A stretch of DNA of 64,000 nt from an uncultured Verrucomicrobiae bacterium (GCA_963738245.1 CAVTWB010000010.1:161603-225602); one strand, 5' to 3'. Shown: positions 3,984 to 61,569, counted from the first letter of the stretch. The notes: generated by a model not told the origin, from the letters alone. Translations and numbers: made by a program.

Positions 3984-4054
3984 GTCAGACACGAATTTCA
4001 CGGATTGACACGAATTAAAATCTGGTTGGTGAAAACTCGTGCAACTCGTGTCTC
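3984..4054. repeat. inverted pair of tandem-word arms (acacgaatt-type words), hairpin-forming
   Basis: cagacacgaatttcacggattgacacgaatt ... aaactcgtgcaactcgtgtctc. It fills the spacer between the ABC ATPase stop and the permease start. Confidence 0.55.
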
Positions 4055-8372: not shown

Positions 8373-9278
8373 TCAGTGAATCGGCGGATTGGCGGGAATG
8401 CCGGTGAACAAATCGAACGGCGGCGTGCGCTCGTCGAAAATCAAAGTCGAGCGCTGGTTGAGCGCCTGTTGCAGCGCGTCAATCCGCAGGAGGAAATTCG
8501 CCAGATCGGGATTCTGCTGGAACACCGGCAGCACCTTGGCGGCCTCGGCCTCGCCTTCGCCGCGGATGCGCGTGGCGTCGGCCACGGCGTTGTTGACGGT
8601 CTCGGACGCCTGCCGGTCGGCGGCGGACTTGATTTTCTGAGCTTCGGCCTCGCCCTCGTATTGAAACTGGTTGATGAGAATCTGCCGGTCGGAAGTCATG
8701 CGCGCAAAAACCGCCTGCGTGATGCTTTCCGGCAAACCGATTTTTTTGAAGCCGAGAAATTCCAGCCTGATACCGCAATTGTTCGTCTCCAACTGCGCCT
8801 GGACGGCCTGCTCGATTTCACCTTCAATCGCGTCGAACTGCAATTCCTTCGGATCCGCGTTCACAAACTCGGAGAGCGTGTGCTTGCCGATGACGGCGCT
8901 CTTGGCGCTGCGCAACATGCTTTCAAGCATCCGCTGCGCAGCCGGCACGGAGCCGCCGGCGAATTTCGGGAAGAATGTTTGCGCGTCGGAAATTTTCCAG
9001 CCGACATAAACGCTCGTAAGCAGATTATTATTATCCGCCGTCAGGTTTTCGCTGAACTTGTCCTCGAAATTCTGGACGCGCTGGTCGAATTTATAAACTT
9101 TCTGGACCGGCCACGGCCATTTGAAATACGCGCCCGGCTCGGTCAGGTCGCGCACCGGCTTGCCGAACGTGGTGACGACGGCGACCTCGGACTGGCGCAC
9201 TTGAAACACAAACAGCAGCAGCGCGAAAATGACAATCAGCACTGCGCCGATGACGACGGTTAACAAATTTCTTTTCAT
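8373..9278 (-). CDS. SPFH/band-7 protein, HflC-like
   Basis: N-terminal TM, then VRQSEVAVVTTFGKP, and a C-terminal EGEAEAQKI...GEGEAEAAK coiled region typical of HflC/HflK. Tightly packed with its neighbours. Confidence 0.85.
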   Translation of the reverse strand: MKRNLLTVVIGAVLIVIFALLLFVFQVRQSEVAVVTTFGKPVRDLTEPGAYFKWPWPVQKVYKFDQRVQNFEDKFSENLTADNNNLLTSVYVGWKISDAQTFFPKFAGGSVPAAQRMLESMLRSAKSAVIGKHTLSEFVNADPKELQFDAIEGEIEQAVQAQLETNNCGIRLEFLGFKKIGLPESITQAVFARMTSDRQILINQFQYEGEAEAQKIKSAADRQASETVNNAVADATRIRGEGEAEAAKVLPVFQQNPDLANFLLRIDALQQALNQRSTLIFDERTPPFDLFTGIPANPPIH

Positions 9279-10390
9279 GGCGATTGACTGTTGGGAACGT
9301 TCAGGTTCAAAAGGTCTTCACGGATTTTATCCTCCAGATCGAAAATCACGACGTCCTGCGTGTTGGTGACGAGCAAAATGTATTTGCGCGCGTTGGCCGT
9401 GGCGCTGGCGAAGGTCTGAAAATACGCGCGCTGCCGGTAAACCGATGGCGCAGCCTCGAAAGCCGGAATCTGGTTGGTGAACAGCGCCGCGCGCGCGAGC
9501 GCCTGGACTTCGAGCCGCTGGCGCGTCGCCTCGGCGACATTGGTCGTCGTGAACGCCAGCGCGCCGGCGAGCGCGTTCGTCTGGATGGCGTAGGCTTTGG
9601 CGTAATTGTTGGTCGTAATCGCCAACTGCTCTGCGCCGACGACTTTTTCATAGTCGCCCGCCACCTTCACCGGCGGATGGATGTCCTGCAGCCCGACAAA
9701 CAAAATTTTCACACCCAGCTTGCGCGCGTCTGCGGCAGCCTGGATTTGATCGCGCAAGGTTTGCGCGGCCTCCAGCCTCGCCTTGGACATGACGGAGTTC
9801 AAATCCACGCCGGCGAGGAAATGCACCACCGCCCGCGTGGCCAGATCCTGTAGCAGATTTGTCGGGTCGGCATTTTGATAGGCCCACGCCATCACGTCGT
9901 TGATCTGGAATTGCACCGGAATGCTGACGGTGATAAGGCTGACCGGCGGCGCCTTCAGCGTGTCGTTGGTGCCGGCATTGGCGTCCTGAATCGTCACCGC
10001 TTCGCGGTTGCCGACGAGAAAATTTTCCTCCTTCGCGTGGGCAACGCTCCACAAAATCGTGTTTGCATTTTCGCTTTGCGCATCCGGCGTGTAGCCGACA
10101 TCGAAGGTCTGGATCTGCTCCGTGCGATATTGATAAACCCGATCCGCGGGCCACGGCAGCTTGAAATGCGCGCCCGGCGTCAAAACGCCGCCTGCCACCG
10201 GCTTGCCGAACCGTTCCAGGACGGCCTGCTCGCCCGCGTCCACGAAAACGACGCAGGTGGACAACAGCAGCACGAGCAATTGCAGCAGCAGCAGCCAGAC
10301 AAGATTTTTTTTTACCAGTTGAAAAAACCAGGTTTCGGAAACATTGAAGCCAAACTGGTAATCAATGGTCTTGGCCGCCGTCGTGAACAA
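9275..10390 (-). CDS. SPFH/band-7 protein, HflK-like
   Basis: TM LVWLLLLQLLVLLLSTCVVFV followed by DAGEQAVLERFGKPV. 4-nt overlap with the next SPFH gene. Confidence 0.8.
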   Translation of the reverse strand: MFTTAAKTIDYQFGFNVSETWFFQLVKKNLVWLLLLQLLVLLLSTCVVFVDAGEQAVLERFGKPVAGGVLTPGAHFKLPWPADRVYQYRTEQIQTFDVGYTPDAQSENANTILWSVAHAKEENFLVGNREAVTIQDANAGTNDTLKAPPVSLITVSIPVQFQINDVMAWAYQNADPTNLLQDLATRAVVHFLAGVDLNSVMSKARLEAAQTLRDQIQAAADARKLGVKILFVGLQDIHPPVKVAGDYEKVVGAEQLAITTNNYAKAYAIQTNALAGALAFTTTNVAEATRQRLEVQALARAALFTNQIPAFEAAPSVYRQRAYFQTFASATANARKYILLVTNTQDVVIFDLEDKIREDLLNLNVPNSQSP

Positions 10391-11159
10391 ACTTTCCGGC
10401 TGGCCGAGCAGGCCGATCGAGGCGGCTGTCGTAAATCAGCCGGGAAATTTTCCCCTTCACGCGCGGCCGGTAAATTTCCAGCAGCAGCGTGATGAGGATT
10501 TCCGCCGCCATCAGGCCGAGCAAAACGCACAGGGCTTTCGCGACGTAGTAATCCAGCCGCGGCAGCTCCGTTTTGGTGCCGGCGATGGCCAGCGCCGTGG
10601 CGAAACAAATATACGCGCCCAGCAAAATGAAACTCGCGCCGGGCCGGAGCAGCCGGTTGTTTTCCAGCCGCGCCATCGTCACGGAAAACCGGCCAAACAA
10701 AAACAGCAGCAGCGCGAAAATGGCAAACAGCGAGAGCGCCGGCATCGCGCGGTCGGGCGCGATCACGCTGGTTGCATTGGCAATCCAGCGCCAGAGCAGC
10801 CACGCGCCGCCCGCTTCGAGCAGCAGCAGCAGCACGCCAAAGCCCGGCACGAAAAATTTCTCGAACTGCTCGCGGGCGCGGCGGGCCGGAAAAACCTCCG
10901 ATTCTTTCGCGTCAAAAAGGTTTGAGCCGCCCTTGGTGCGGGGCAGTTCGTCAATTTCCAGTTTTTCCAGCCGTTCGTTTTCCTCGAGCCGCATCTGGAA
11001 CCAGCTCGCGAATGCGACCAGCGCCGCGAGTCCGAGGAAGATCGAGGCCGCCTGGCCAGCCAGCGAGCGGACATAAGTCGTCACGACAAACGCGGCGACA
11101 AAAATCATCGCCGCCGCGAGCAGGTTCACCAGCCCGTTTTTTTGAACATTGCGTTCCAC
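10362..11159 (-). CDS. polytopic membrane protein of unknown function (first gene of the SPFH block)
   Basis: At least 6 hydrophobic segments. The 3' end overlaps the SPFH gene by 29 nt, and the upstream part of the SPFH frame is also open, so a fusion or frame error cannot be excluded. Confidence 0.55.
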   Translation of the reverse strand: MERNVQKNGLVNLLAAAMIFVAAFVVTTYVRSLAGQAASIFLGLAALVAFASWFQMRLEENERLEKLEIDELPRTKGGSNLFDAKESEVFPARRAREQFEKFFVPGFGVLLLLLEAGGAWLLWRWIANATSVIAPDRAMPALSLFAIFALLLFLFGRFSVTMARLENNRLLRPGASFILLGAYICFATALAIAGTKTELPRLDYYVAKALCVLLGLMAAEILITLLLEIYRPRVKGKISRLIYDSRLDRPARPAGKFVHDGGQDH

Positions 11160-11164
11160 GTTTT

Positions 11165-11250
11165 GTTAAATCGTTAAATCGTTACTTTGTTAAATCGTTG
11201 CACCGGGATTTGCCGAACCGGTTTAACGATTCGACCATTCAACAATTTAG
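11165..11250. repeat. inverted pair of tandem-word arms (gttaaatc words)
   Basis: gttaaatc gttaaatc gttacttt gttaaatc gttgcaccgg ... ccggtttaacgattcgaccattcaacaattt. Occupies the spacer between two minus-strand genes. Confidence 0.6.
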
Positions 11251-12317: not shown

Positions 12318-14808
12318 TTACGCCATCGCGCGGGCGATGCTGTTCCACCACGCGTCGTGCAGTTCGGTGAGCGGGGCGGAGAATTCGCCGCTGGCGGTTT
12401 TCACCGTCAGCTTGTCGCCGCCGACTTTGCCGATTTGCACCGCGGGCACGCCCATGAGCTTGGCGCGTTCGACGACTTTCACGGCGTCGAGCGCCTTGCA
12501 ACTGATGACGATGCGCGATTGCGTTTCGCCGAAGAGCAACGCGTCGAGGCGCGTAGTGGTAGGGACGCGTTCCACCGCGTCCCCATCTTCCAGTTTGGGA
12601 CGACGTGGAAGTCGTCTCTACCAACGAAAGATCAATCGTCGCGCCGATAAGGCGCGGCGTTTCGCGGGCGATGAGTTGGCTAATGCAGCTTTCCGCGAGC
12701 GCGACGGCGAGGCCGCCTTCGCTGCAATCGTGCGCGCTCTTCACGAGGCCGGATTGGATCAGGCCGATGAGCGTGGTGTGCAGCGTCTTCGCGACTTCAA
12801 GGTCGCAGCGCGGCGGCGAACCGTTCTTCTTGCCGTGGACGACTTGCAGATACGCGCTGCCGCCGAGGCCGAAAATCGGATCGTCTTTGTCCACCGCTTC
12901 GCCGAGCAGGATGATGGCGTCGCCTTCGTCCTTGAACCATTGCGTGGTGACGTGCTCCAGCTTCTCGATGAGGCCGACGACGGAAATCGTGGGCGTCGGA
13001 TCAATCGGGCCGGCGGGGCTTTGATTGTAGAGCGAGCAATTGCCGCCGGTGACGGGCGCGTTGAAGGCTTTGCAACCTTCCGCCAGACCGCGCACGGATT
13101 CCTTGATCTGCCAGAACAGCTCGGGCTTGAGCGGGCTGGGCATGTTGAGATTGTCCGTCGCGCCGAGCGGAATCGCGCCGGAGCAAGCGAGATTGCGGCA
13201 CGCTTCGGCCACGGCGATTTTCGCGCCTTCGTAGGGATCGAGATAAACGTAACCGCCGTTGCAATCCACGGTCATGGCGATCAACTTCTCGGAAACTGTC
13301 GGGTCGCCAACTTTCGCGGCGAGTTCCGCGCTCATCACGGGCAACGAATCCGTCTTGATGCGGATGACCGCCGCGTCGCTGCCGGGCAGAACGACTGAGC
13401 CGTCGCGCACTTGATGATCGTATTGGCGATAGACCCAGTTCTTCGACGCGATGCTCGGCCACGCCAAAAGCTTTATCAAATCGTCAGACGGGAGATTGGG
13501 TATCGGGAATATCCGTCCAGCCGGAACGCTCGAACATCTTTCAGATACGCCGGCTCAACGGCTTCGCGCTGATACACCGGCGATTCGTCGGCAATTTTCC
13601 GCGCGGGAATATCCACGACGAGTTTGCCGCCGTGCCGCACCTTCATGTGGCCGGTGTCGGTGATGATGCCGATCTCGGACCACGGCAAATCCCACTTGTC
13701 GAAAATGCGTTTCACTTCCTCTTCGCGGCCCTTGTGGACGACGATGAGCATGCGCTCCTGCGATTCCGAAAGCATGATCTCGTAGCTGCTCATGTTCGGC
13801 GCGCGTTGCGGAACTTTGTCGAGTTCGATCTCGATGCCCGTGCCGGCGCGCGCCGCCATTTCGCAGGTGGAACAGGTCAAACCCGCCGCGCCCATGTCCT
13901 GCATGCCGGCGACGCAACCGGTGGCGAGCAGTTCGAGGCACGCTTCGCACACGAGTTTTTCCATGAACGGATCGCCGACCTGCACCGCGCCGCGCTGTTG
14001 CTCGGCGGATTCCTCGGTCAAATCCTGCGACGCAAACGCCGCGCCCGCGAGACCGTCGCGACCCGTCGCCGGGCCGACGTAAAACACGGGATTGCCCACG
14101 CCCTTGGCCGCGCCGCGCGTGATCTGTTCGTGGCGCAGCACGCCGAGGCAGAACGCGTTCACGAGCGGATTGCCTTGATACGTCTTGTCGAAATACACCT
14201 CGCCCGCGACGGTCGGGATGCCGAAGCAATTCCCGTAATGCGCGATGCCGCTGACGACGCCGGCGAACAGGCGGCGGTTGTTGCGATTTCGATTTTGTGC
14301 TTTGGGGATCACGCGCCCTCGGCGTTGCGACGACCCCGTCGTTCGAATTTCGATTGACGAGGCGTCACCGCGACGGTCGCGCTCCCGTTTATTCGTCCGT
14401 GATCGGCCCAAAGCGCAGCGAGTTCACCGCGCAGACCGGCCGCGCGCCCATCGTGAAAATGTCGCGCACGATGCCGCCGACGCCGGTGGTCGCGCCCTGA
14501 AACGGCTCGACCGCGCTCGGATGGTTGTGCGACTCGATCTTGAACGCGATGGCGATGCCGTCGCCGATGTCAATGATGCCGGCATTTTCCTCGCCCGCGC
14601 CGACGAGGATTTTCGGCGACTTGGTGGGGAAGGTCTTGAGCAGCGGCTTGGTGTTTTTGTAGCTGCAATGCTCGCTCCACATCACGGAAAAGATGCCGAG
14701 CTCGGTGTAGCTCGGCGTGCGGCCGAGGATTTCCACGGCGTGGGCGTATTCTTCCGGCGTGAGGTTGTGCTTGGCAACCAACTCTGGGGTGATGGCGGGT
14801 TCGGTCAT
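12318..14808 (-). pseudogene. purL: phosphoribosylformylglycinamidine synthase subunit PurL, split over four frames as assembled
   Basis: Pieces read in order: [11 protein letters not shown]...CSYKN...[24 protein letters not shown]...[10 protein letters not shown]; then [26 protein letters not shown]...; then LLAWPSIASKNWVYRQYDHQV...PVTGGNCSLYNQ...; then RLDALLFGETQSRIVISC...WWNSIARAMA*. The breaks are near 14389, 13480-13520 and 12575-12610. Confidence 0.88.
14281..14307 (-). repeat. heptamer-word repeat inside purL (part of an insertion of about 110 nt)
   Basis: The coding strand reads CCCCAAA GCACAAA ATCGAAA TCGCAAC and encodes PKAQNRNRN immediately before the conserved [11 protein letters not shown]. 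Confidence 0.55.
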
Positions 14809-14969
14809 GGAAAAAATTTTAATTCAATTAAACTTGGCAGCTCGCGCGTCAATTTCCGGGCGAAACTCAATTTCAATCCGGTCAAAGTAAAACTTTCAGT
14901 CGCGCTTGGAAATCAAAAACCAAAAGCCGTGAGCCACGGCAGGCAATGGCCAACCGCAAGGTTCAAAAC

Positions 14970-14996
14970 GGCCTTTAGAAACGGAGGCCTTTTTTT
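14970..14996 (+). terminator. orphan plus-strand intrinsic-terminator-like hairpin upstream of brnT
   Basis: GGCCT ttagaaacgg AGGCC followed by T7. No plus-strand gene lies upstream of it. Confidence 0.4.
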
Positions 14997-15033
14997 GTTT
15001 GCAGCCACGGCTTCCGTCGGTTCAACTTTCCCC

Positions 15034-15315
15034 ATGCTCACGTTTGAATGGGACGCGAACAAGGCCAGAGCCAATCTGACCAAGCACGCCGTCAGCTTTC
15101 AGGAGGCCACCACGGTTTTTGGCGATCCGGTTTCCATCACCATTCCCGACCCGGCGCACTCGCAGGCCGAGAACCGGTTCATCATTTTGGGCAAGTCGCA
15201 TCAGGGCAGAATTCTGGTTGTCGCCCACACCGAACGCGGCGATAATATCCGTGTCATCAGCGCGCGACCCGCGAGCCGCCGCGAAAGAAAACAATATGAG
15301 CAAGCCATCAGCTAA
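15034..15315 (+). CDS. brnT: BrnT-family (DUF497) toxin
   Basis: MLTFEWDANKARANLTKHAVSFQEATTVFGDP...RFIILGKS..GRILVVAHTERGDNIRVISARPASRRERKQY, which is the characteristic BrnT pattern. Confidence 0.8.
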   Translation: MLTFEWDANKARANLTKHAVSFQEATTVFGDPVSITIPDPAHSQAENRFIILGKSHQGRILVVAHTERGDNIRVISARPASRRERKQYEQAIS

Positions 15316-15517
15316 ATCAGCAGATAAAGAAATGCAGCCGGAATATGATTTTTCAGCCGGTGTGCGTGGCAAGCATTTCCGGCGCTACCAGCGCGGCACG
15401 AACGTGGTGGTGCTCGATCCGGACGTGGCCAAGTTTTTTTCCAACGCCGAAACCGTGAACGATTCGCTGCGCGCACTCGCGGGCATCATCCGCCGCCAAA
15501 AAGTTGTGGTGAAATAA
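15296..15517 (+). CDS. brnA: BrnA-like antitoxin
   Basis: Overlaps the brnT 3' end by 20 nt. Contains PEYDFSAGVRGKH...VVVLDPDVAKFF...SLRAL, typical of antitoxins partnered with BrnT. Confidence 0.65.
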   Translation: MSKPSAKSADKEMQPEYDFSAGVRGKHFRRYQRGTNVVVLDPDVAKFFSNAETVNDSLRALAGIIRRQKVVVK

Positions 15518-15519
15518 TT

Positions 15520-16134
15520 ATGAAGAAAACCTGTATTGTGATGGTTGCGATTATTTTGGTCGCAATTCTCAATCAGGGATGCTCCTCTCTTGGTGAACTG
15601 CCGTCCGGCAAGGTATGGTATAAGCCCGGAATAAGCGAAGATCAAACACAGTTGGATTGGTTGATTTGCCAACAAGTAGCATTGCAAAACGGCTCTCTTC
15701 AAGCAGCCCCCAATCAAATACAAGCAACACCCAGCCAATCTTACAATCCACCTACCACTGTTCAACCGAATGCTTACGGTTTGGGAGTCAATGCCGACCA
15801 ATATGGCCGGCCAAGCACCTACCAGTTGCAAAATGGCCAACAACTCGATCCGATATTCAACGCAGGTGTGAAGCAAAACGCGTATGGACCAGGCGTTGGG
15901 CAAGACCAGTTTGGGAGACCTGTTTATAATACTCCATACGATAATGCTGCATCTGGAAATTATGGACAGGGAAGTGATGCCGGGGGACAGATTGCCTTAA
16001 ACATGCTAAATGTGATGGCAGAAAACGGCAGAGCCAAAAGCTTAATGACGGCAAAGGGGTATCGTTTAGTAAGCACAAATTCACCTTCGCTGATAAACAG
16101 ACCGCTGCATTTTACTGACGCGGACTTTAAATGA
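15520..16134 (+). CDS. lipoprotein of unknown function, Q/N/G/P-rich with a duplicated NAYGxGVxxDQ[YF]GRP motif
   Basis: Lipobox ILNQGC. Starts 2 nt after the brnA stop. Visibly lower GC than the flanks. Confidence 0.6.
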   Translation: MKKTCIVMVAIILVAILNQGCSSLGELPSGKVWYKPGISEDQTQLDWLICQQVALQNGSLQAAPNQIQATPSQSYNPPTTVQPNAYGLGVNADQYGRPSTYQLQNGQQLDPIFNAGVKQNAYGPGVGQDQFGRPVYNTPYDNAASGNYGQGSDAGGQIALNMLNVMAENGRAKSLMTAKGYRLVSTNSPSLINRPLHFTDADFK

Positions 16135-16170
16135 ACGACAAGGGCGGCCAGTGTTACAAAAACACTGCTT

Positions 16171-16641
16171 ATGAATAAACCAGCGGCTGTCATTGATAAA
16201 TCGCTGTTGCAGGCCATTTGCGAACAAAAGGCAGAGAAACGGAGTGCTTATTACAAAGCATTGTCCAAGCACTATCAAGTAGTCGTTACGCTGGTTTTGG
16301 TTGAAGAAATTTGGGTCAACATTGCAAAACCTAACGAAAAAACACCGCCAACGGTTCTTGCAAACTTGCAGGATTTTCTTCGATTACACGATTCGTGGAT
16401 TGCTGATCCTTTAGAAATTGCGTTTGCCGAGCTTGTAAAAGGAGAGTCAGTTAAAATCCTTCCACGACCAGCTAATAATTTGGAGCATAGTTTTTCCATA
16501 CTGCGTCCTGAAAATCCAGCACTGGTAAATTGGGTAGAAATCAGGCGATCAAAATACTTGGCCGTGGATTTCGCGACCAATTTAATAATCTTGCCGATGA
16601 AAGATATGTCCAATCTGCATTGCTGTGTGACCGATTATTAA
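16171..16641 (+). CDS. hypothetical protein (low GC); may continue in the 16530-16766 frame after a frame break near 16540
   Basis: ORF of 156 aa. The overlapping +1 ORF continues in a protein-like way (..AIKILGRGFRDQFNNLADERYVQSALLCDRLL..). No family recognised. Confidence 0.4.
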   Translation: MNKPAAVIDKSLLQAICEQKAEKRSAYYKALSKHYQVVVTLVLVEEIWVNIAKPNEKTPPTVLANLQDFLRLHDSWIADPLEIAFAELVKGESVKILPRPANNLEHSFSILRPENPALVNWVEIRRSKYLAVDFATNLIILPMKDMSNLHCCVTDY

Positions 16642-16851
16642 CGCGTGACAAAGGAATGCACAATGTTATGACACTGCTCAAAGATTGCGGGTTTTGGGAT
16701 GGAATATCTGTCTTCATTGATCCCAAAAAAGACATGGAAATTCAAATTTCTCAAAGCCTAATCTAGTTTTAGAAAAATTCTTCCACCCATTCTGCATTCG
16801 TTCAAGCGCGGGCAATTCATCCAAGATTTTCTGGATGACTGCCCTTCGGAA

Positions 16852-17136
16852 TTACTGCCCCGCATCCAGCCGCAGCAGGCAATGGCCGAAATCCACCACC
16901 GGCTGGCCGGGCGTGGGCAGATATTGGCGCACGATCTGGTAGACGCCGCCGCGCCCCCGCTCCACCAGTCCCGCCTTCTGCAAAACTTGCAGATGTTTGA
17001 CGCTGCTGTCGTAGCTGCAACCGCCCACCGCCGCCAGTTCGGCAATCGTCCGCGCCTCGCCGCAGGTCAATTCCTTGAGCATCTTCCAGCGCGACATCTG
17101 GTTGATGGCTTGAAGCGCCCGTTTGAGGTCGGGCAA
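16852..17136 (-). CDS. ArsR/SmtB-family winged-helix transcriptional regulator
   Basis: RWKMLKELTCGEARTIAELAAVGGCSYDSSVKHLQVLQKAGLVERGRGGVYQI matches the ArsR-type HTH pattern. TTG start. Confidence 0.7.
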   Translation of the reverse strand: MPDLKRALQAINQMSRWKMLKELTCGEARTIAELAAVGGCSYDSSVKHLQVLQKAGLVERGRGGVYQIVRQYLPTPGQPVVDFGHCLLRLDAGQ

Positions 17137-17220
17137 CGGCTTGACGATGGCATTTTTCGCGTGTTCTAGGTGTTGAATTCATGCAGAAAACCTTAAATAA
17201 TGGGGAAATCAATGTCAACT

Positions 17221-17525
17221 GACGGATCGCTTATTCTGTTGACAGGATGGCTTCTTCTGTCAGGCGAGGAATGGAATTTTTATCGGCGGGAATGCTTTTT
17301 CCATAGGAGGGACGTAAACATTTTCTACAGAAGAGATGGCATTCTTCTTCGGCGGGATGGAATTGTTTGCTGGCAGGATTTTGCCTAAGATTGTCGGCGA
17401 GATTGCTTTGTTTGTCGGCCGGAATGCCTTTTCTTTCAGCCGGATTGCTTATTACTCGGGCCGGCCGGCCTTTTCGTTCCGGCGGATTCGCCTTTAATCA
17501 CGGCGCGAGTCCATTTGCTCATGCC
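17221..17525. repeat. tandem array A1: about 14-15 degenerate units of about 21 bp (GGCGGGA-type dyad core plus T-tract)
   Basis: Unit starts at 17221, 17241, 17263, 17285, 17306, 17330, 17351, 17372, 17396, 17417, 17438, 17459, 17481 and 17502. Example units: ggcgggaatgctttttccata, ggcaggattttgcctaagattgtc, ggcggattcgcctttaatcac. The right end is 8 nt from the purQ stop. Confidence 0.85.
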
Positions 17526-17533
17526 TTTCATGC

Positions 17534-57308: not shown

Positions 57309-57388
57309 AATTTACGATTTACGATTGCCGATTTACGATTGGCAAAACAGCGGCGCGTAAATCGTAAATCAAAAATCGTAAATTCGTG
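57309..57388. repeat. inverted pair of 33-nt four-heptamer arms (atttacg words) filling the queE-aminotransferase spacer
   Basis: AATTTAC GATTTAC GATTGCC GATTTAC GATTG gcaaaacagcggcg CGTAAAT CGTAAAT CAAAAAT CGTAAAT TCGTG. The right arm includes the GTG start at 57386. Confidence 0.75.
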
Positions 57389-57714
57389 ACCACAACAGAG
57401 ACTTTTCAATTACTCCGCGACTACGAATCGCGCAACATCGTGTTCATTGAGCCCGACGGCTCGTGGCCGATTGTCTGGGAACGCGCCAAGGGCGTTCACG
57501 TCTGGGATGCGGAGGGCAAAAAATATCTGGATCTGACCGCCGCGTTCGGCGTCGCCGCCGCCGGCCACGCGAATCCAAACGTCGTTCGCGCCGGGACAGA
57601 AACAGATGGCCAAACTGCTGCACGCGATGGGCGATGTGCATCCGCACGCGCTCAAGGCCGAACTCGCGCGGGAATTGAGCCGCATCACTTTCGAGCGGTG
57701 GAGCAGCCTGTCAG

Positions 57715-58448: not shown

Positions 58449-58483
58449 AATTCAAAATTCAAAATTCAAAATTCAAAATTCTG
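58449..58483 (+). repeat. 35-nt variant E4 of the four-heptamer element, coinciding with an aminotransferase frame break
   Basis: AATTCAAAATTCAAAATTCAAAATTCAAAATTCTG. Compared with the canonical ...CAAAACTG end it has 2 extra nt (TT at 58479-80). Confidence 0.8.
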
Positions 58484-58702: not shown

Positions 58703-59632
58703 ATGACGCTCACCGAAATGCGCGCGTTGCTGGCGAAACGCGACATCCAACTGACGCGCTCGCTCGGCCAGAATTTTCTCCACGACGGCAACCAACTCCG
58801 GCGCATCGTGGACGCGGCGGAAATCACGCCGGCGGATAAAATTCTGGAAATCGGGCCGGGGCTGGGGCCGTTGACGGAATTGCTTTTGGAAAAAGCCGGC
58901 GAGGTGCTGGCGATTGAAATGGACGCGCGGCTGGTGGATTTTTTGTGCGAGCGGTTCGGCACGGAACAACGGAATCGCCGATTTGCTGGTCGGACGCAGT
59001 TGAGCCGGCCAGCCAGAAAAGCTGTCCGAGCCGGAGCAGAGTGCGGCGTTCCATCTATTGCACGATGACGCGCTGGCATTTCTCAAGCGCGAGCCGCGCG
59101 ACTGGAGCGATTGGAAGCTCGTGGCGAACCTGCCGTATTCCGTCGCCTCGCCGATTTTGGTGGAACTCGCCGCCGGCCCGCGCGCGCCGAAGATGATCGT
59201 CGCCACGCTGCAACTGGAAGTCGCGAAGCGGCTGATGGCGCAGGCGGACGACGACGATTACGGCATCCTGACGCTGCTGGTGCAGCTTGATTTTGAGCCG
59301 CGCGGCAGCTTCAAGATTCCGCCGGAATGTTTTTTCCCGTCGCCGGACGTGGATTCCGCGTGCGTGTGCCTGCGTGCGCCGCGCGACGCCGCTGCTGCCG
59401 GAAAATCTCCGCGCCGACCTTCGTAAAAATCGTCAAGCGCGGCTTCTCGCAACGGCGCAAGATGATGCTGAAATTGTTGAAACAGGATTGGGCGGCGGAC
59501 AAACTGGCGGCCGCGTTTGCCGAATTAAAAATCTCGCCGCAGGAACGCGCGGAGAAATTGAGCTTGGAACAGTTTGTGGCGCTCACGCAATTCTTGAGTA
59601 GCCACAACTTTATGAATAAAAAATTGTTGTAG
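58703..59632 (+). pseudogene. rsmA: 16S rRNA (adenine1518/1519-N6)-dimethyltransferase RsmA/KsgA, multiple frame breaks as assembled
   Basis: MTLTEMRALLAKRDIQLTRSLGQNFL...ILEIGPGLGPLTELLL | ..FHLLHDDALAFL...LVANLPYSVASPIL...FFPSPDVDSACVCL | ..PLLPENL.. | FVKIVKRGFSQRRKMM... Confidence 0.82.
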
Positions 59633-60949: not shown

Positions 60950-61465
60950 ATGAGCGAAGAAATTTTTGACATCGTCAACGAGCGCGACGAGGTGGTCGGG
61001 CAGAACACGCGGCGCGAGGTTCATGCGCGCGGGTTGTGGCATCGCGCGGTGCATGTGCTGGTGTTCAATGCGCGCGGCGAGGTGTTTCTCCAGAAGCGCT
61101 CGATGAAAAAGGACATCGCCGCCGGCAAATGGGATTCGTCGGCGTCCGGCCATCTGGACAGCGGCGAGGCTTACGACGCGTGTGCGGTGCGCGAGGTGCG
61201 CGAGGAGATCGGACTGAACATTGTGACGACAGACAGCCGCACGCGGCTTTTCAAGATTGACGCGCGCAAGGAGACGGGCTGGGAATTCTGCTGGATTTAC
61301 CGCTGCGAAAACGAAGGGCCGTTCGTTTTGCATCCCGATGAAATCGAGACGGGCGCGTGGTTCGCGCCGGACGCGGTGACGAAGTGGGTGAACGAAAAGC
61401 CGCAGGATTTTGCGAGCGCGTTTGTGCTGATCTGGAAAACATTCGTTAAATCGTTGAAGTGTTGA
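60950..61465 (+). CDS. Nudix hydrolase
   Basis: Nudix box GKWDSSASGHLDSGEAYDACAVREVREEIGL. The 5' 65 nt form DR2. Confidence 0.85.
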   Translation: MSEEIFDIVNERDEVVGQNTRREVHARGLWHRAVHVLVFNARGEVFLQKRSMKKDIAAGKWDSSASGHLDSGEAYDACAVREVREEIGLNIVTTDSRTRLFKIDARKETGWEFCWIYRCENEGPFVLHPDEIETGAWFAPDAVTKWVNEKPQDFASAFVLIWKTFVKSLKC

Positions 61466-61515
61466 ATTGTTATATCGCCCGCAAAATTTCGATTCAACGA
61501 TTCAACAATTTAACC
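61444..61515. repeat. inverted pair of tandem-word arms overlapping the nudix 3' end
   Basis: cgttaaatcgttgaagtgttgaattgtt ... tcgattcaacgattcaacaatttaacc. The left arm encodes the last residues FVKSLKC*. Confidence 0.6.
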
Positions 61516-61569
61516 ATTCAGCGATTCTTCCACACTTTACTTGCGGCGAAAATGGAGTAGTTATTTCCC

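Follow-up and report, generated by a model that had tools for sequence, protein, structure and literature searches.

A probable worn palindromic mobile element in a permissive PurL loop, beside a likely assembly indel, in an uncultured verrucomicrobial bacterium

This analysis concerns the gene purL of an uncultured Verrucomicrobiae bacterium, as found in a stretch of 64,000 nucleotides (GCA_963738245.1 CAVTWB010000010.1:161603-225602; the whole stretch is called the window here), and in particular a palindromic segment located, in the encoded protein, between the strand ending SLRFG and the next helix (site 1). The segment is probably the worn copy of a non-autonomous palindromic mobile element seated in a permissive loop of PurL, accompanied by a likely assembly indel. 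The element family, with full copies of 102 or 108 nucleotides (nt), was previously unnamed and is now defined with a fixed translated frame. A preliminary description of this DNA had proposed a palindromic insertion in a short PurL loop, which is strongly supported; relatives have the element in frame, and at this very codon position. Its title speaks of an insertion that 'interrupts' purL; this misleads, since a gene can remain intact with an insertion of this type. The features on which the argument rests are the following, with positions counted from the first letter of the window.

12318–14808, minus strand: purL (FGAM synthase II, PurL subunit), from the ATG at 14808 to the stop codon at 12320–12318, by translation.
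12318–14808, minus strand: frame segments of purL, with frame 0 over 14808–14392, frame 1 to about 13510, frame 2 briefly, frame 0 again to about 12595, and frame 1 to the stop at 12320–12318.
14387–14406, minus strand: left junction CCGATCACGGACGAA-TAAAC, by frame analysis.
14389–14391, minus strand: TAA stop in the start-codon frame (frame 0), directly 3' of …PITDE and in phase with the ATG at 14808 (417 nt, 139 codons).
14303–14386, minus strand: the palindromic element (102/108 nt when full) in a degenerate copy of 84 nt, by alignment of 17 family copies, BLAST and folds.
14365–14367, minus strand: TGA, a second stop in the upstream frame, within the element (GGTGACGCC), by translation.
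14277–14302, minus strand: right flank AAGCACAAAATCGAAATCGCAACAAC (the 'heptamer words'), by alignment with relatives.
13480–13517, minus strand: inter-domain linker, variable and free of inserts, with two more frame changes of net +1 (13517–13505 and 13495–13480, about 20 nt apart), by translation and comparison with relatives.

Translation agrees with the preliminary description that the start-codon frame ends at the TAA, and the second stop in that frame, the TGA, is the same one that closes the sole closed forward frame of the element-family consensus. The segment between SLRFG and LFAGV is 166 nt long (3n+1), so that a one-base change would restore the frame, as had been suggested. The most economical site for a single-base discrepancy is the left junction, where one base less in GAATAAAC gives an in-frame reading, and where the relatives P0040 and P0123 read PITDE(K/R)…. 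The downstream frame, which carries the rest of the conserved protein, is stop-free over the entire insert, as had also been noticed, but this was dropped as evidence of coding because 28% of shuffled inserts are likewise stop-free in a given frame. Altogether, four frame changes occur in purL: one at the site-1 insert, two in the linker, which reads RLDG → IPDTQSP → SDDLIKLL… across the frames (compare P0002/L082, NIPDTQSPISDLLKLL), and one in a second palindromic insert. Protein comparisons were made with a 'repaired' PurL in which the frames were joined and the inserts removed. The PurL of Thermus thermophilus (PDB 3VIU) matches the window PurL at E = 2e-173. The adjoining purQ and purS are intact, as are long genes elsewhere in the window.

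The comparison set consisted of 120 database PurL proteins that are 86–95% identical to the repaired window PurL (Pfam FGAR-AT_linker/AIRS/AIRS_C); those that carry labels are from Verrucomicrobia, and the closest relative is placed in the Limisphaerales. They range from 772 to 872 residues, and the differences in length are confined to three spots. At site 1 they hold 8 to about 76 residues, with at least ten unrelated types of insert. The empty form is ELTDPAVR (8 residues; P0005, L100, L001, L010) and the commonest form is PITANGESDISNSKAEIANNR. The loop is normally short, as the preliminary description had it, and has a few residues in 3VIU. The HMMER alignment to 3VIU splits exactly at site 1. 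The insert type matching the window DNA is found in P0006, P0044, P0058 and P0061, and the same element occupies the same codon position in L081–L084, in segments of 213, 192, 183 and 198 nt, all of them multiples of three. Alignment also bears on the possibility, raised earlier, that the segment is ancestral in orthologues. This holds in part, since the element is common to a subclade (L081–L084, L087, L092, L094, L095), but it is absent from the close relatives P0005, P0066 and P0089, which are 94–95% identical to the repaired window PurL, and from the outgroups L001 and L010.

The family itself could be delimited by an alignment of 17 copies. Its ends are GGGGAGCGC…GCTCCCCA, with sharp boundaries at GGGGAGCGC…G(Y)G(C/A)TCCCCA, and full copies are 102 or 108 nt long, both multiples of three. 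The inverted termini are clear in the alignment and in the folds, in which a full copy is a long stem with two hairpins of 10 bp on top; z scores against shuffled sequences are -10.3 (108 nt) and -7.5 (102 nt). The family is open in four of six reading frames, and all in-phase genic copies are read in the same one, GSA-A-AVDASST…DGAS-ATREGA-(A/D)PQ, and the predicted product of the element would be a segment rich in Ala, Ser, Gly and Asp.

Metagenome contigs were scanned with the conserved core TGACGCCYCGTCAA-N8-30-ACGACGGGG, which returned 14 loci, 13 of them with the element. The copies are dispersed over unrelated loci in at least five contexts. PurL site 1 accounts for four of the 13, and another four lie in frame in a nucleoside-phosphorylase-like protein (PNP_UDP_1). 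One (L091) interposes in frame directly ahead of GFDVVIGNPPY in a methylase of the Eco57I/N6_Mtase type, where the orthologue L096 is empty; two (L096, L089) are at a second site of that methylase, where L091 is empty; and the remaining two are at the 3' end of a gene combining HAD and NUDIX. The copy of L096 at the second methylase site is itself cut short. Filled and empty orthologues are thus represented by the ELTDPAVR alleles of PurL beside the filled ones, and by the methylase pair, with the reverse arrangement at its second site. Insertions of 3n nucleotides with the host open reading frame (ORF) continuing on both sides are seen in PurL of the relatives, in PNP_UDP_1 and in the methylase; the window as sequenced has 166 nt with TAA and TGA. 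In the PNP_UDP_1 protein of L088/L097 there are two inserts, the 102-nt element and, about 30 residues on, another type of repeat (…RRRGDESQIKEKSETPHVVSY…).

The copy in the window is a reduced one. The imperfect inverted repeat that had been described after the TAA is present, and 14386–14303 folds as one long imperfect hairpin, GACGCCTCGTC / GACGGGGTCGTC around AATCGAAATTCGAA, but only modestly better than shuffled sequences (z = -2.65 for the 84-nt copy as DNA; -51.8 kcal/mol and z = -2.3 for a 131-nt segment as RNA). Relative to the family it has GGG for GGGG, a left arm that has lost 10 nt, and a loop and right arm with lesser deletions, and it matches the L081/L084 copies at 85.5% over 76 nt (BLAST, E = 3e-13). 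It is an old, eroded relic, and several of its deletions against the consensus of the family are real. The heptamer words reported beside the hairpin are also present (14302–14277), but as what remains of an older sequence of the loop (in relatives it encodes …STKAEIANN…; L081 has 2 nt more) and with no significant structure of their own: the version in L099, a basal loop, has z = 0.05. The older 21-residue loop was considered as a palindromic landing pad and rejected, as its DNA folds no better than shuffles.

It is proposed that the element would transpose as DNA into the permissive loop, for which a Y1 (HUH) transposase of the RAYT (transposase associated with repetitive extragenic palindromes, REPs) or TIRYT type would be the obvious candidate. 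In an essential gene, only copies that are in phase and in a permissive loop would survive, and fixed copies would then erode by small deletions that keep the frame. The inserted segment would form an additional loop at the surface, tolerated by the enzyme, as suggested indirectly by the length variation among near-identical intact orthologues and by the split of the 3VIU alignment at this place. The relative L082 has a Y1_Tnp gene, with hairpins of its own on its flanks, 1.3 kb upstream of purL.

The frame break next to the window copy (TAA; 3n+1) is likely to be an assembly indel, one of many single-base errors. At least five frame changes lie outside purL, and the window has them in three further conserved genes:

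~9278–11165, minus strand: Band_7 (SPFH)-like membrane protein gene, with one extra base in a conserved stretch at 10409–10421 (CTCGATCGGCCTG against CTCG-TGGGCCTG in the orthologue, CTCGTGGGCCTG), which splits the gene into two ORFs.
57590–57605, plus strand: first frame change of a class-III aminotransferase gene (Aminotran_3), at GCCGGG-A-CAGAAACAG.
58451–58478, plus strand: second frame change of the aminotransferase gene, inside a perfect (TTCAAAA)x4 array, with the peptide FKIQNSKFKI.
~58750–59630, plus strand: ksgA (RrnaAD), split over at least two frames, with Pfam profile positions 5–76 in one ORF and 79–189 in the next.

One unit more or two fewer in the (TTCAAAA)x4 array would restore the aminotransferase frame, and this change could represent either repeats collapsed during assembly or variation by strand slippage. 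A mixed-strain consensus or poorly polished long reads would fit as the source of the indels. Frameshift-scarred assemblies are common in such bacteria: a database search with the in-frame junction returned many short PurL fragments scarred in this way, on contigs of 27–104 kb from related bacteria.

The strongest rival is that purL is a genuine, recently inactivated pseudogene with real indels, the cell obtaining its purines from elsewhere or by means of another FGAM synthase. This would explain, without appeal to error, the two stops in the upstream frame and the four frame changes in the sequence as given, as well as the breakage of several other genes of the window, as in a decaying genome. 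It also has a natural parallel in L089, an independent metagenome contig of 1.75 kb, where a copy of the element lies out of phase in the C-terminal part of the Eco57I-type methylase, in the stop-containing TGA frame (…ERTRLACGG*), and truncates this dispensable gene; like the copy in the window, it has GGG for GGGG. Apart from the indels, however, purL bears no marks of decay. Over 648 columns with a conservation of at least 97%, the repaired PurL has a single private amino-acid change, at the splice junction of the repair itself, and intact relatives have a median of 2. Counted at sites invariant in eight relatives, the gene has four private nucleotide substitutions, three of them at codon position 3, and each intact relative has 23–49. 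The excess of private non-synonymous or nonsense changes that relaxed constraint would leave in a pseudogene was not found, the conserved parts contain no in-frame nonsense substitutions, and purQ and purS are unbroken. Neutral decay would not give four independent indels without substitutions, and ksgA and the conserved Band_7-like gene would need to be dying simultaneously. From a gene in decay the reverse pattern of substitutions would be expected; a consensus-like sequence with indel noise fits well and is therefore favoured, the pseudogene being considered unlikely. The purL of the window is 92–93% identical to each of L081–L084, yet almost without private substitutions, and has the look of a consensus or a mosaic drawn from the diversity of its clade, which fits a mixed-strain consensus or frequent recombination.

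Of the two outcomes left open by the preliminary description, an in-frame insertion combined with a consensus error or a genuine disruption, the former is thus favoured, as the more probable, by the indels elsewhere and the lack of other decay. Several observations speak against this explanation of the site-1 segment. The error at the frame break is an inference. The frame changes are strongly clustered and not evenly spread (four in purL, at least four in 57.3–59.6 kb, one in Band_7), and they sit outside homopolymers. The L089 copy shows that out-of-phase insertion does occur naturally. Copies of the hairpin segment, for which a search had been proposed, were not found elsewhere in the 64-kb window, where BLAST at word size 7 gave only chance matches of 18 nt or less, and no second copy came to light in the approximately 120 kb of clade DNA covered ahead of the scan of metagenomes, where the signature peptides of the various insert types occurred only in purL. 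Among database sequences, the exact allele of the window read in frame was not found (best 74%). This reading would give a very basic loop rich in Arg, Lys and Asn; the loops of the relatives are rich in Ala, Ser and Asp. No target-site duplication is visible at the filled and empty methylase pair L091/L096, where the flanks have diverged. No transposase gene was identified for the element, and tblastn detected no Y1_Tnp homologue in the window. An AlphaFold model of P0044, meant to show the insert as a disordered surface loop, had a mean pLDDT of 28 and was unusable, because its alignment contained only near-identical rows.

Two further alternatives attribute a function to the hairpin or to the frame break. 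The hairpin could be a functional structured RNA or regulatory signal in purL (attenuator, terminator or small RNA) and not selfish DNA, in keeping with its folding better than most shuffles and with the presence, at gene ends elsewhere in the window, of hairpins made of heptamer-like words. This is very improbable: the insert has no match to an Rfam family at gathering thresholds or even at E ≤ 1, the window copy has lost most of the pairing of the family (z = -2.65 compared with -10.3), the same element lies within unrelated coding sequences in one fixed reading frame, and alleles without it are common in close relatives. Equally hard to credit is expression of purL through recoding, by programmed frameshifting or by hairpin bypass as in gene 60 of phage T4; a take-off codon GAA is followed by the TAA and the hairpin, and 40 nt later the downstream frame has a GAA to match it (ATC-GAA-ATT), but by chance a Glu codon that matches would be expected within 40 codons, the element is read through without a break in relatives, the hairpin is weak (z about -2.5), and the three other frame changes of purL and those of other genes have no stop-plus-hairpin, so that the protein would still be broken. 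A bypass like that of T4 gene 60 was rejected on these grounds, the GAA…GAA pair being expected by chance and unable to rescue the other frame changes.

Repeated heptamer-like words, such as ATTTACG/CGTAAAT and TAAATCG…, make up the arms of intergenic hairpins of the window at 57309–57384, 61438–61529, 11163–11245 and 3987–4053. The hairpins at 57309–57384 and 61438–61529 fold significantly (z = -3.2 and -3.7, respectively), and, lying at gene ends, these hairpins may be terminators or another repeat family.

The fourth frame change of purL falls within the second palindromic insert, at site 3, a second loop located before RLDALLFGE that is similarly variable in length and type of insert among the relatives:

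12559–12621, minus strand: inverted doublet of GTAG-headed REPs, GTAG-AGACGACttccacGTCGTCC…GGGACGCGgtggaaCGCGTCC-CTAC, before RLDALLFGE, by alignment and folds.

The spacer of this doublet (12596–12585) has 12 nt in the window and 11 nt in L099 (P0016), which carries the same doublet in frame (LVGTTSTSSQTKNGDAVERVPTTT), and P0011, P0012 and P0016 read LVGTTSTSSQT(G/K)NGDAVERVPTTT in frame at this site. The fold has z = -3.9 in the window and -5.9 in L099. Other site-3 alleles, and types B and F of site 1 in relatives, are also GTAG…CTAC doublets, and three different doublets at site 3 share their left boundary, DLS-x-V. A generic scan of GTAG-headed hairpins with lax settings found no excess (9 matches, compared with 5–18 in shuffles); only the strict class, with an 8-bp stem and 4-nt loop, was informative. 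At site 3 of P0023 there is a 50-residue insert (QFPVFAMTQEQVQKVFEKMLIPSKVQEILNSPTKQIDCEALKRIKPKDSF) that does not look palindromic and is unlike all others. A third hot spot is found at AAKV|GDPKVSE, where P0038, P0109 and P0120 have SGRAELPLG(R/Q)DAQQRVPTI in place of GDPKVSE; this looks like another translated REP-type element, and the corresponding position of the window (~13300) is empty.

It could be speculated that both PurL loops are preferred landing pads, in which many palindromic families have been inserted and swapped as translated cassettes among strains whose PurL is otherwise about 90% or more identical. This proposal is put forward tentatively and is rather doubtful; a possible route would be cleavage by a Y1 transposase and rejoining at conserved heads of the elements. 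If it were true, purL would be a natural model of targeted, frame-preserving insertion in a free-living bacterium. A weaker variant of the proposal would take some of the frame changes, such as that in the (TTCAAAA)x4 array of the aminotransferase gene, to be real slipped-strand switches.

The gap between purQ and purL is a variable island, both in the window (14850–17530) and in L081, L082, L084, L099, L101 and L102. In the window it contains a BrnT toxin gene (15034–15315), a likely antitoxin and small unknown ORFs. In the relatives the island holds HigB, HicAB with an N6/N4 methylase, SLFN_AlbA_2/HATPase_c_4, DUF1016/YhcG, or PDDEXK_3 with a Y1 transposase.

A practical consequence concerns annotation. 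Together with indel noise, a small mobile palindrome within an essential gene here takes on the look of a pseudogene; purL will be cut into fragments by gene callers, and purine auxotrophy may be wrongly reported. Of the by-products of the analysis, the hot spot at the level of the population is the most interesting. One enzyme loop that holds at least ten element families in very close strains provides a natural data set on the tolerance of insertions and on site choice and survival. The findings also extend the pattern of selfish DNA translated inside housekeeping proteins, seen in Rickettsia and Opitutus terrae, to environmental Limisphaerales.

Several known systems invite comparison. The Rickettsia palindromic elements (RPEs; Ogata et al.) are described, in the summaries of PMC10969869 and PMC3733652, as palindromic non-autonomous repeats of about 100–150 nt that lie in frame in unrelated housekeeping genes of Rickettsia, each family encoding a conserved peptide, with inserts presumed to occupy places that the host protein can tolerate. 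The site-1 element resembles them in being palindromic and, in relatives, in frame, with dispersed copies and filled and empty orthologues. RPE hosts are obligate intracellular alphaproteobacteria, whereas the host of the site-1 element is a free-living, GC-rich member of the Limisphaerales (Verrucomicrobiota); the element has no sequence relation to RPEs, and here one loop takes many families among very close strains. Intragenic REPs have been surveyed by Di Nocera et al. (2013; PMC3733652), who found mostly dimers encoding 20–30 residues, some ORFs with two inserts, and different REPs at about the same recB site in two Xanthomonas species; they also occur in the verrucomicrobium Opitutus terrae (PMC3733652). 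The site-3 doublet of the window, together with several site-1 and site-3 inserts of the relatives, consists of plain members of the GTAG/CGTC REPs. The site-1 element differs from the GTAG REPs and REPINs mobilised by RAYTs, as it has no GTAG heads and forms one palindrome of 102/108 nt, inside which two hairpins contain CGTC. There is a resemblance to the 'TIR' repeats linked to TIRYT transposases (consensus GGGGWSAS; PMC3733652), but the element does not match that consensus exactly (GGGGAGCG). With the MITEs of bacteria (miniature inverted-repeat transposable elements), such as ERIC, BOX, QMITE1 and Nezha (PMC10969869), it shares small size, terminal inverted repeats, the lack of its own coding capacity, dispersal and an occasional translational fusion with host ORFs; it differs in being one whole palindrome instead of short inverted repeats around a unique core, and in having no known parent insertion sequence.

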